Assembly (NCBI GenBank): GCA_963422735.1
Contig: OY730476.1
Location: 832,001-896,000 of the forward strand
Length of the DNA stretch: 64,000 nucleotides
Direction: 5' to 3'
Origin: Candidatus Latescibacterota bacterium
Lineage (GTDB): Bacteria > Latescibacterota > UBA2968 > UBA8231
Shown here: one piece after another, positions 62,874 to 64,000 of the stretch
Layout of the letters: each line of letters opens with the position of its first letter
Numbering within the stretch: the first letter of the stretch is position 1
Position numbers and translations under genes: made by a program
The notes under the pieces: generated by a model
Seen by the model: the letters and a program-made list of their open reading frames with translations, nothing else
Told to the model about the DNA's origin: nothing
Databases searched by the model: none

Positions 62874-63392
62874 TTAGAATACATCTGCAAGCGGCATTTT
62901 CCATCCAAGCACCACATCGCCGCCGTCGAGCATGTCGCCTGCGGTGAGAATACAAATATCGTCGGGAGCGCGGTAAACCGCTGCCGTGCGTTGAGGGGGG
63001 TTGATCACAACGACCATCCGAGTGCCTGCCCGCAGCCAGTCGGACACTTTTTCTTCTACTTCGCTGTACCGATCATTTGGCGAAATGACTTCAACGGCGA
63101 GGTCGGGTGCGCCGGGAAAAAAACCTTGATCTTCTGCTGTAGCTTCAGCGCGTTTCCTCGACACAAAGCTGACGTCGGGCGCGGTGTCAATGATGAAGCC
63201 GGTTTCGCCCAAGCCATTTTTTGCAACAAATGCTTCGAGACAGCTACCGATTTTTGCGGCAATGCGTCCGTGTCTTCTGCCAGCGGGTGCCATCTGGCGC
63301 AATTTTCCTTGTACGAGTTCGCAGCGATAGCCATGGTGCGGCATCGCCAGCAACTCATCGGCGGTCATCTGGGCAGCCGTTTGTAGAGCCAT
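62874..63392 (-). CDS. Uma2 family (DUF820) endonuclease, apparently with small in-frame deletions
   Basis: ELVQG..MAP...HG, ETGF, APDVSFV, APDLAVEVISPND, L.GGDV. Confidence 0.85.
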   Translation of the reverse strand: MALQTAAQMTADELLAMPHHGYRCELVQGKLRQMAPAGRRHGRIAAKIGSCLEAFVAKNGLGETGFIIDTAPDVSFVSRKRAEATAEDQGFFPGAPDLAVEVISPNDRYSEVEEKVSDWLRAGTRMVVVINPPQRTAAVYRAPDDICILTAGDMLDGGDVVLGWKMPLADVF

Positions 63393-63467
63393 AACAGGAC
63401 CTTTGCTGTTCTGGTTGGGCCTAGAACCCAAGTCAACTCTTCTGCGTCAGCAGAGCATCAAGCCCCT

Positions 63468-63842
63468 TCAGTATTCGCTCGTCGTCCCCCCATTCCAACA
63501 CTCAGCCGTCTCGCCCTTGGGATTGAGAAGCGTGGCCGAGCGCTTGCCCAGCTTGATCCATACGGTCTTACCCACATAGATCCAGCACCAAGAGCAATGC
63601 TCTTTAGGGTCGAGCAACCAGACGGCCCCGTCCGGCAACCGCACCAACAACCGCCCCTCGGCAAAGCGGCGCATCAAGTGCGCTTCCACATAGCTGCCTT
63701 CTGCCAACAGGGCCGCAGCCTTGGGCGAGGGTTCCGGCGCGGGGGCCGGTGCTGAGACGAGCGCGCATCCTCCAGCCAGTAATGCGCCGACGAGGGCACC
63801 GCAGATCCTCCGTACGCGGGAATTACTTGTTACAATATCCAC
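63468..63842 (-). CDS. Hypothetical lipoprotein (start uncertain; 5' end overlaps the repeat array)
   Basis: RRICGALVGALLAGG-C lipobox, Pro-rich linker, small beta-rich domain with CSWC. Confidence 0.65.
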   Translation of the reverse strand: MDIVTSNSRVRRICGALVGALLAGGCALVSAPAPAPEPSPKAAALLAEGSYVEAHLMRRFAEGRLLVRLPDGAVWLLDPKEHCSWCWIYVGKTVWIKLGKRSATLLNPKGETAECWNGGTTSEY

Positions 63843-63949
63843 GATAAACCTGTCCACAGGTGCAGGTCCCCGCACGCGGGGATTGCTTGATCATCGCCGA
63901 GTGGGAGACCGCCAACCGGATGCAGATCCCCGCACGCGGGGATTGCTTG
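63800..63949. CRISPR. CRISPR-like mini-array: 3 hairpin repeats (29-30 nt), 2 unique 31-nt spacers
   Basis: TGCAG(G/A)TCCCCGCACGCGGGGATTGCTTG at 63861-63889 and 63921-63949; degenerate CGCAGATCCTCCGTACGCGGGAATTACTTG at 63800-63829; no cas genes in window. Confidence 0.6.
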
Positions 63950-64000
63950 GCATACAGTTTGCGACATTCTTCCACACTCCTTATCATCAGATCAATTAAC

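Follow-up and report, generated by a model that had tools for sequence, protein, structure and literature searches.

The array at positions 63800-63949 of the window (the whole 64,000-nt stretch analysed, G000:C1:832001-896000 of a one-contig genome) is probably a real CRISPR-derived array, with a repeat built on the hairpin of the type I-E repeats of congeneric genomes, that survives as an inert relic of type I-E character or as an ectopic mini-array. It lies directly upstream of a complete type III-B locus and it belongs with the relic or mini arrays found beside cas loci, a class that is already known.

On the plus strand, the array consists of a degenerate repeat copy of 30 nt (63800..63829), spacer 1 (63830..63860; 31 nt, 41.9% G+C), repeat 1 (63861..63889; 29 nt, with G at position 6), spacer 2 (63890..63920; 31 nt, 64.5% G+C) and repeat 2 (63921..63949; 29 nt), the last being the reference copy, with the core TCCCCG-CACGCGGGGAT. 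Repeats 1 and 2 start 60 nt apart and are identical at 28 of 29 positions, with a single A/G difference, and none of 100 shuffled sequences gave any match of this kind. The spacers have 9 of 31 positions in common (counted by eye), which is about the random level. Each intact repeat forms a hairpin of approximately 10 bp with a bulge (-15.1 kcal/mol on the plus strand; z -2.8 and -3.4), and the A-to-G difference keeps its pair as G-U on that strand with equal folding energy, whereas the degenerate copy is without such a fold (-3.2 kcal/mol, z +0.6). The initial annotation of the window had described two 29-nt repeats with one mismatch, a third degenerate copy, two unrelated 31-nt spacers and a hairpin within the repeats; its coordinates and sequences are correct, and the hairpin is borne out in both intact copies. 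No further repeat is found in the 86 nt that follow 63949, after which cmr2 begins.

Relative to repeat 2, the degenerate copy has four substitutions and one extra base. When the 4.95-Mb genome was scanned in full on both strands, with a tolerance of up to five substitutions, one insertion and one deletion (6 edits in total), three sites only were returned, all of them in the mini-array, and the third copy is therefore taken as real and in register with the array. Neither the repeat nor its 14-17-nt core occurs anywhere else in this genome. A REP-type or IS-end palindrome, scattered singly, had been named at the outset as the finding that would speak against an array; the repeat resembles REP-type elements in being a GC-rich imperfect palindrome, but it is not dispersed, and this candidate was rejected. 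A coding tandem repeat was also discarded, given that the spacers are unrelated and that the segment is missing from relatives; in addition, the plus-strand open reading frame at 63721-63999 overlaps a conserved lipoprotein gene. The arrangement is that generally expected of CRISPR arrays, namely direct repeats of 23-55 nt with unrelated spacers of much the same length between them, and there are cas genes nearby, those of the type III-B locus 86 nt away, which is of a type not cognate to the mini repeat. Other repetitive sequences in the genome include a tandem repeat of 16 units of 72 nt that are 91% alike (G000:C1:3412685-3413852), which is not CRISPR, and several heptamer tandem repeats.

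Type I-E arrays are among the closest counterparts of this arrangement. Seven I-E loci were retrieved, of which six belong to the genus and the seventh to a different genus in the family; in every one the repeat measures 29 nt and the period 61 nt. The mini-array (29-nt repeat, 60-61-nt period) is laid out in the same style. When the plus-strand core TCCCCG--CACGCGGGGAT is aligned with TCCCCGCACACGCGGGGAT, the I-E repeat of G096, a genome from the same family but a different genus, there are 17 identities and a 2-nt gap in the loop; the score of 14 was reached by 0 of 2000 shuffles, while the minus-strand mini repeat scores 10, a value reached by 16 of 2000. The match is confined to the hairpin core. 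Both flanks and the loop length differ. Neither in the I-E repeat nor in the III-B repeat is there a counterpart to the outer bases of the mini repeat (seven at the 5' end, six at the 3' end), and the initial annotation had likewise found the flanks unfamiliar. Thus, with respect to the I-E arrays of congeners (29-nt repeat, 32-nt spacer, Cas6e hairpin), the mini-array is alike in repeat length, period and the 17-position core on the plus strand, but it has a loop 2 nt shorter, unrelated outer bases, only two spacers, and neither a leader like those of congeners nor I-E cas genes were found with it. Its flanks show no likeness to the leaders or trailers of the congeners' I-E loci. None of the congener I-E loci examined adjoins the lipoprotein gene, so that synteny gives no support to a former I-E locus at this place. 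Away from the main I-E arrays of congeners there are an extra two-repeat mini-array (L073:14404-14495, genome G008) and solitary repeat-like sequences (L074-L076). Regulatory mini-arrays have been described at such places in I-E loci.

A reading outside CRISPR has to be weighed here, in which the intact copies are two 26-nt imperfect palindromes that act as protein-binding sites or as RNA hairpins and control the lipoprotein and cmr promoters, which diverge. Almost all of the repeat can pair with itself, in a stem of 10 bp that has a single bulge, and the copies lie between divergent genes, with a promoter-like site a short way downstream of them. Moreover, a single hairpin similar to the mini repeat core, GGTCCCCGC-GTTG-GCGGGGATC, is found in a second intergenic region of the divergent kind, which has a cupin/nucleoside-hydrolase operon on one side and an aldo-keto reductase gene on the other (G000:C1:4581517-4581534; L085:4517-4534), although by our own estimate one such hairpin is approximately what chance would give for a GC-rich palindrome. 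This reading leaves out the third copy, which does not fold and nevertheless sits in exact array register, and the two intervening segments, both of 31 nt and unrelated, which together with the 29-nt repeat reproduce the geometry of the I-E arrays of the genus; the core also matches the I-E repeat, and no regulator gene is evident beside the array. We regard it as unlikely.

The type I-E system is present in the lineage. Of 30 other genomes that belong to the genus, 9 have Cas6e, and therefore I-E is within the gene pool of the lineage; at the level of the family, 13 of 75 other genomes have it. It is in none of the four relatives that bear the cmr operon. In this genome, which is 95% complete and assembled as one contig, searches for Cas6e, Cas7e, Cas6f and Csf2 gave no matches (TIGR01907 and TIGR01869, for the cognate Cas6e and Cascade, 0 matches), so that no marker genes of types I-E, I-F or IV were found, and there is a single cas1. 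The proposal that this is an array in the style of types I-E/IV thus holds for the I-E geometry and the hairpin, and does not extend to I-E or IV genes. Given that neither Cas6e nor Cascade was found in the genome, the mini-array is probably inert as an immune array. Apart from the III-B locus and the mini-array, the only other CRISPR material in the genome is a decayed type I-C remnant (G000:C1:3166089-3169450; L003:10089-13447), composed of cas3, a shortened cas5c and an array of four 37-nt repeats. Its cas5c covers only profile positions 1-173 of 203 and runs straight into the array, and there is no cas8c, cas7 or cas1 beside it; a comparison of its repeat with the mini repeat gave nothing that stands out.

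The neighbour on the right is a complete type III-B locus, organised as a plus-strand operon that begins 86 nt from the last repeat, outside the window. Its positions are given here in L001 coordinates, which are window coordinates minus 63000. The order is cmr2/cas10, cmr3, cmr4, cmr5, a cmr6-cmr1 fusion, a Uma2-family gene, a CARF-HEPN gene (profile TIGR02710), cas1, cas2, the array and cas6 (L001:13118-14023). The cmr2/cas10 gene (L001:1036-3645, plus strand) encodes a GGDD motif and has its ATG at window-equivalent 64036. The initial annotation had supposed that an effector could lie just outside the window and had recommended a search for cas genes to the right, and that search led to this cas10/cmr2 and to a locus with both cas1 and cas6. 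The array had also been called an orphan; as regards position it is not one, and the term applies only to the cognate cas genes, of which none were found.

Some features of this operon deserve mention in their own right. The cmr6-cmr1 fusion (L001:6012-8327) is an open frame of 771 aa in which residues 121-294 match the Cmr6 profile and residues 321-499 the Cmr1 profile, and a match of fusion length is also seen in four relatives. The Uma2-family gene (L001:8180-9205), a putative restriction endonuclease gene, lies between cmr6-cmr1 and the CARF-HEPN gene; it occupies the same place in three of the four relatives with the orthologous operon, and for this reason it may be a conserved III-B accessory. 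A second Uma2 gene within the window (62874-63431, minus strand) gave no BLASTP match to it. In the III-B array, one spacer occurs twice in tandem, as two identical 77-nt repeat-spacer units (L001:12934-13087).

The III-B locus has its own adaptation genes and its own array (L001:12079-13125), made of 14 repeats of 37 nt that end in ATTGAAAC, and this repeat differs from the mini repeat in length (37 vs 29 nt) and in the last four bases. It matches Rfam CRISPR-DR10 on the plus strand, below the family threshold. The local alignment of the two repeats has a score of 9, reached by 2.8% of shuffles, which rests mostly on CCCCGC...GGGGATTG, including the first four bases of the tag. This score and the difference in length ruled out that the mini repeat is a member of the III-B array or a decayed form of its repeat; decay from the resident repeat is also contradicted by the two intact copies, which agree with each other and not with it.

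The 86 nt that separate the array from cmr2 (63950..64000 and on to window-equivalent 64035) are AT-rich, with 40.7% G+C vs 58.9% in the window, which agrees with the first description of the right flank. They carry a sigma-70-like match, TTGCGA-17-TATCAT, at 63959-63987 on the plus strand, pointing into cmr2; it is the one promoter-like site in L001:600-1200, where shuffled sequences have a mean of 0.2, and its -35-like hexamer lies 9 nt downstream of the last repeat. A transcript from this site would not include the mini-array, and within L001:600-1200 there is no plus-strand promoter-like site upstream of the array. None of the sequencing runs listed for this stretch is recorded as RNA; contigs of one run, guessed to be of RNA, map only at L001:1008-1343, within cmr2 and immediately before it, and such contigs cannot show starts, strand or absence.

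The cues to the orientation of the mini-array conflict, and they do not favour the minus strand. That strand, with the leader on the right, had been preferred initially, and two cues do fit it: the copy that has degenerated is the leftmost one, and the AT-rich flank is on the right side. Three others point to the plus strand: the loop fits the I-E repeat better on this strand (the core score of 14 vs 10), the 8-nt tail after the stem begins with ATTG, like that of the resident repeat, and the A/G difference between the repeats retains a G-U pair only in plus-strand RNA.

If the plus strand is the transcribed one, the array would have the same orientation as the operon and its array, and a functional mini-array that serves the III-B system can be envisaged: its transcript would be cut by the resident Cas6 or another RNase, and the products would be crRNA-like RNAs with an 8-nt AUUGCUUG tag, used by Cmr for defence or for the control of host or cas transcripts. 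The distance of 86 nt from cmr2 agrees with such a role, as do the near identity of the two intact repeats, the pairing that their single difference retains on plus-strand RNA only, and the stretch CCCCGC...GGGGATTG held in common with the resident repeat, the first four tag bases among it (the score of 9 matched by 2.8% of shuffles); regulatory mini-arrays beside cas promoters are also known in types I, II and V, according to the portion of the literature considered here. On the other hand, the resident repeat is unlike the mini repeat in length, in the loop and in the final four bases of the tag, the plus-strand promoter that such a transcript calls for was not found upstream of the array in L001:600-1200, and four of four relatives with the orthologous operon are missing the array. 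Shmakov et al. 2023 (PMC10120712), in the part of their work that concerns type III mini-arrays, found no functional evidence for them. The spacers weigh on the same side, since no full or partial target exceeded shuffled controls in the 17-kb locus or in the genome, and altogether this role seems rather unlikely.

As for the targets, the best spacer match in the genome itself was 17/18 at E 0.28, for spacer 2, and none went beyond chance; against phage and plasmid collections nothing fell below E 0.03. The searches of host, phage and plasmid sequences suggested by the initial annotation thus gave no match above chance, with E values of at least 0.03 in the phage and plasmid collections. Full-length ungapped matches were not above those of shuffled spacers, either in the 17-kb locus or genome-wide. 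In the 17-kb locus, the best such match was 19/31 for each spacer, and 53 and 149 of 200 shuffles reached it. No partial complementarity of a spacer to a cas or toxin promoter, a characteristic of regulatory mini-arrays, was found above the shuffled level in that locus. Three other public runs include contigs over the array, and these do not differ from it by a single letter, possibly because they come from the same strain; they have little bearing on spacer turnover.

The comparison with relatives places the array in this lineage alone. Within the genus, four of 30 other genomes have an orthologue of cmr2 (70-77% identity); the search of 131 genomes of the class gave no further one, and none of these four has the mini-array upstream of cmr2. 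In G018, G043 and G007 the lipoprotein gene is still the neighbour of cmr2, and between the two lies a promoter region (TTGACG...) that is conserved and shorter; the fourth (G006) has a different gene upstream of cmr2 and the same promoter as the other three. In the present genome, approximately 220 nt, from about 63800-63816 to 64035, take the place of the lipoprotein start codon with its ribosome-binding site, of the intergenic stretch that the relatives conserve, and of roughly the first eight codons of cmr2. Since this segment is specific to the lineage and the relatives are without the array, the mini-array entered or arose within this lineage. When the segment (240-260 nt) was compared by BLAST with 40 relatives and 167 genomes of the phylum, just chance matches in coding regions were obtained. 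A solitary hairpin in the same intergenic region of G007 bears a loose likeness to the repeat, with 7 of 15 flanking positions alike by our own count, and was not counted as homologous. The III-B arrays of the relatives have close variants of the 37-nt repeat, in 28-66 copies within the stretches retrieved, compared with 14 in this genome.

The lineage-specific segment also reaches into the gene on the left. The lipoprotein-like open reading frame has a maximal extent of 63468..63875 on the minus strand and contains an LAGGC lipobox; its 5' end runs through the degenerate copy and spacer 1 and into repeat 1. The orthologues in G018, G043 and G007 have an ATG start with a strong ribosome-binding site and no array, and the gene described here has neither that ATG nor that site. 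Spacer 1 carries a possible GTG start (63842-63840, minus strand), and the gene must start at a GTG within spacer 1 or repeat 1 or else be defective. The degenerate copy overlaps, on the minus strand, the codons for the N-terminal part of the lipoprotein signal peptide; in that frame it reads SNSRVRRIC, a charged signal-peptide start, where an intact repeat would give SNPRVRGSA, and the degeneracy of this copy may be due to its use as coding sequence.

Searches for the repeat beyond this genome found no array with it, and whatever they hit were single sites due to chance. The core with a free loop plus the right flank had 12 singletons and no arrays in 185,579 species genomes, and these were terminator-like hairpins or coding sequence; the left-flank pattern had 23 singletons in metagenome contigs, in coding sequence; and in viral contigs there were no sites for the flank pattern and four singletons for the core pattern. 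The whole repeat at up to three mismatches occurs in none of the 30 other genomes of the genus, which answers the suggestion that related genomes be searched for it, and the exact 17-nt core is in none of 167 other genomes of the phylum. These patterns are strict, each requiring one exact flank or the exact core, and diverged relatives of the repeat could therefore be missed. In Rfam the mini-array matches no family, its sole match being a chance snoRNA at E 1.7, and this blank is without weight because genuine I-E repeats of a congener matched no Rfam family either.

The initial annotation had contemplated, on the basis of the unfamiliar repeat, an unusual new CRISPR subtype or a non-Cas RNA-guided array. 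The whole repeat did go unmatched in Rfam and no array with it appeared in the collections scanned, but the weight of the first of these observations is nil for the reason just given, and the array has two spacers only and no relatives. The genes within 13 kb to the right make up a standard III-B locus with its own 37-nt array, and those to the left code for the lipoprotein, a Uma2-family protein and enzymes of metabolism. As no gene in the neighbourhood is left unexplained, an undescribed subtype or a non-Cas guide system is very unlikely, and this proposal is without support.

The type III mini-arrays are also among the known elements that come closest. Shmakov et al. 2023 (PMC10120712), in the sections devoted to these elements, report mini-arrays beside 10-14% of type III loci and describe them as not conserved, without targets and judged to be degraded. 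The array studied here resembles them, as they are characterised in those sections, in being short, adjacent to a III-B locus, unconserved in close relatives and devoid of a detectable target. The elements of that study were found by their likeness to the repeat of the locus itself and near its CRISPR array, whereas the present array has a heterologous, I-E-like repeat and stands at the other end of the locus, immediately before cas10. Regulatory mini-arrays (the cas-regulating RNAs of types I and V, and the long tracrRNA form of II-A), in the accounts drawn on here, are similar in having one or two spacers and an adjacent cas promoter; in those same accounts their spacers are partly complementary to a cas or toxin promoter and they are conserved in related loci, and neither is the case here. 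A third point of comparison is provided by neo-CRISPR arrays that result from off-target integration by Cas1-Cas2 (Nivala et al., 2018, as cited in bioRxiv 10.1101/148544). As far as they are described there, the likeness lies in a repeat unique to one site, in the ruler length of I-E and in very few spacers. With regard to the differences, no relative has the pre-integration state, and no I-E Cas1-Cas2 is left in this genome.

Most likely, then, the mini-array was made by a type I-E adaptation machinery that has since been lost from the lineage, and two routes to its present form can be proposed. The first is that it would be the truncated end of a former array of I-E type that was brought in and then mostly deleted. 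Deletional decay of the kind that this route needs can be seen at the I-C remnant, and this remnant, together with the III-B array of 14 repeats vs 28-66 in relatives, is a sign of CRISPR decay in the genome. It would, however, require an I-E lineage with an odd repeat, which the scans did not find, and the plain remnant of an ordinary I-E array is unsupported, since the flanks are unlike those of congeners and no array with this repeat is found elsewhere. The second route is that of an ectopic, or neo-CRISPR, array, founded by I-E Cas1-Cas2 where a hairpin happened to be similar to the I-E repeat; this route would explain the unique flanks and the lack of any such array elsewhere better than the first. 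By either route, the DNA of the array would now amount to the region upstream of the cmr promoter plus the 5' end of the lipoprotein gene, and to nothing else.

There are two further observations that this explanation does not easily accommodate. The identity of 28 in 29 positions between the intact repeats is high for an old relic that is not under selection, and counts against it; and the array abuts the cas10 promoter, having replaced the ancestral promoter region, a location that would also suit a regulatory role. The alternatives keep some probability because of this near identity, of the contact with the cas10 promoter and of the tag start shared with the resident repeat. One more specific proposal, which we consider improbable, is that the array replaced the ancestral cmr promoter region and now works as a control element of the III-B operon. 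It might do so through crRNA-like RNAs with an altered tag starting with AUUG, loaded on Cmr for the control of self transcripts, or through protein-bound hairpins that gate the cas10 promoter.

If the control-element proposal were true, the array would be to type III what the cas-regulating mini-arrays are to types I, II and V, with a heterologous repeat of I-E style, and if it regulated or fed the III-B complex it would bear on whether type III systems have crRNA-like autoregulators. Should its origin lie in off-target integration, the array would be a neo-CRISPR array that arose in nature, and to our knowledge few of these have been documented. As a relic, which is the reading that we prefer, it would be a small and clean example of the decay of a CRISPR locus and of the reuse of its debris, in which the DNA of the array has become the 5' end of a lipoprotein gene and the sequence that precedes the cas10 promoter.
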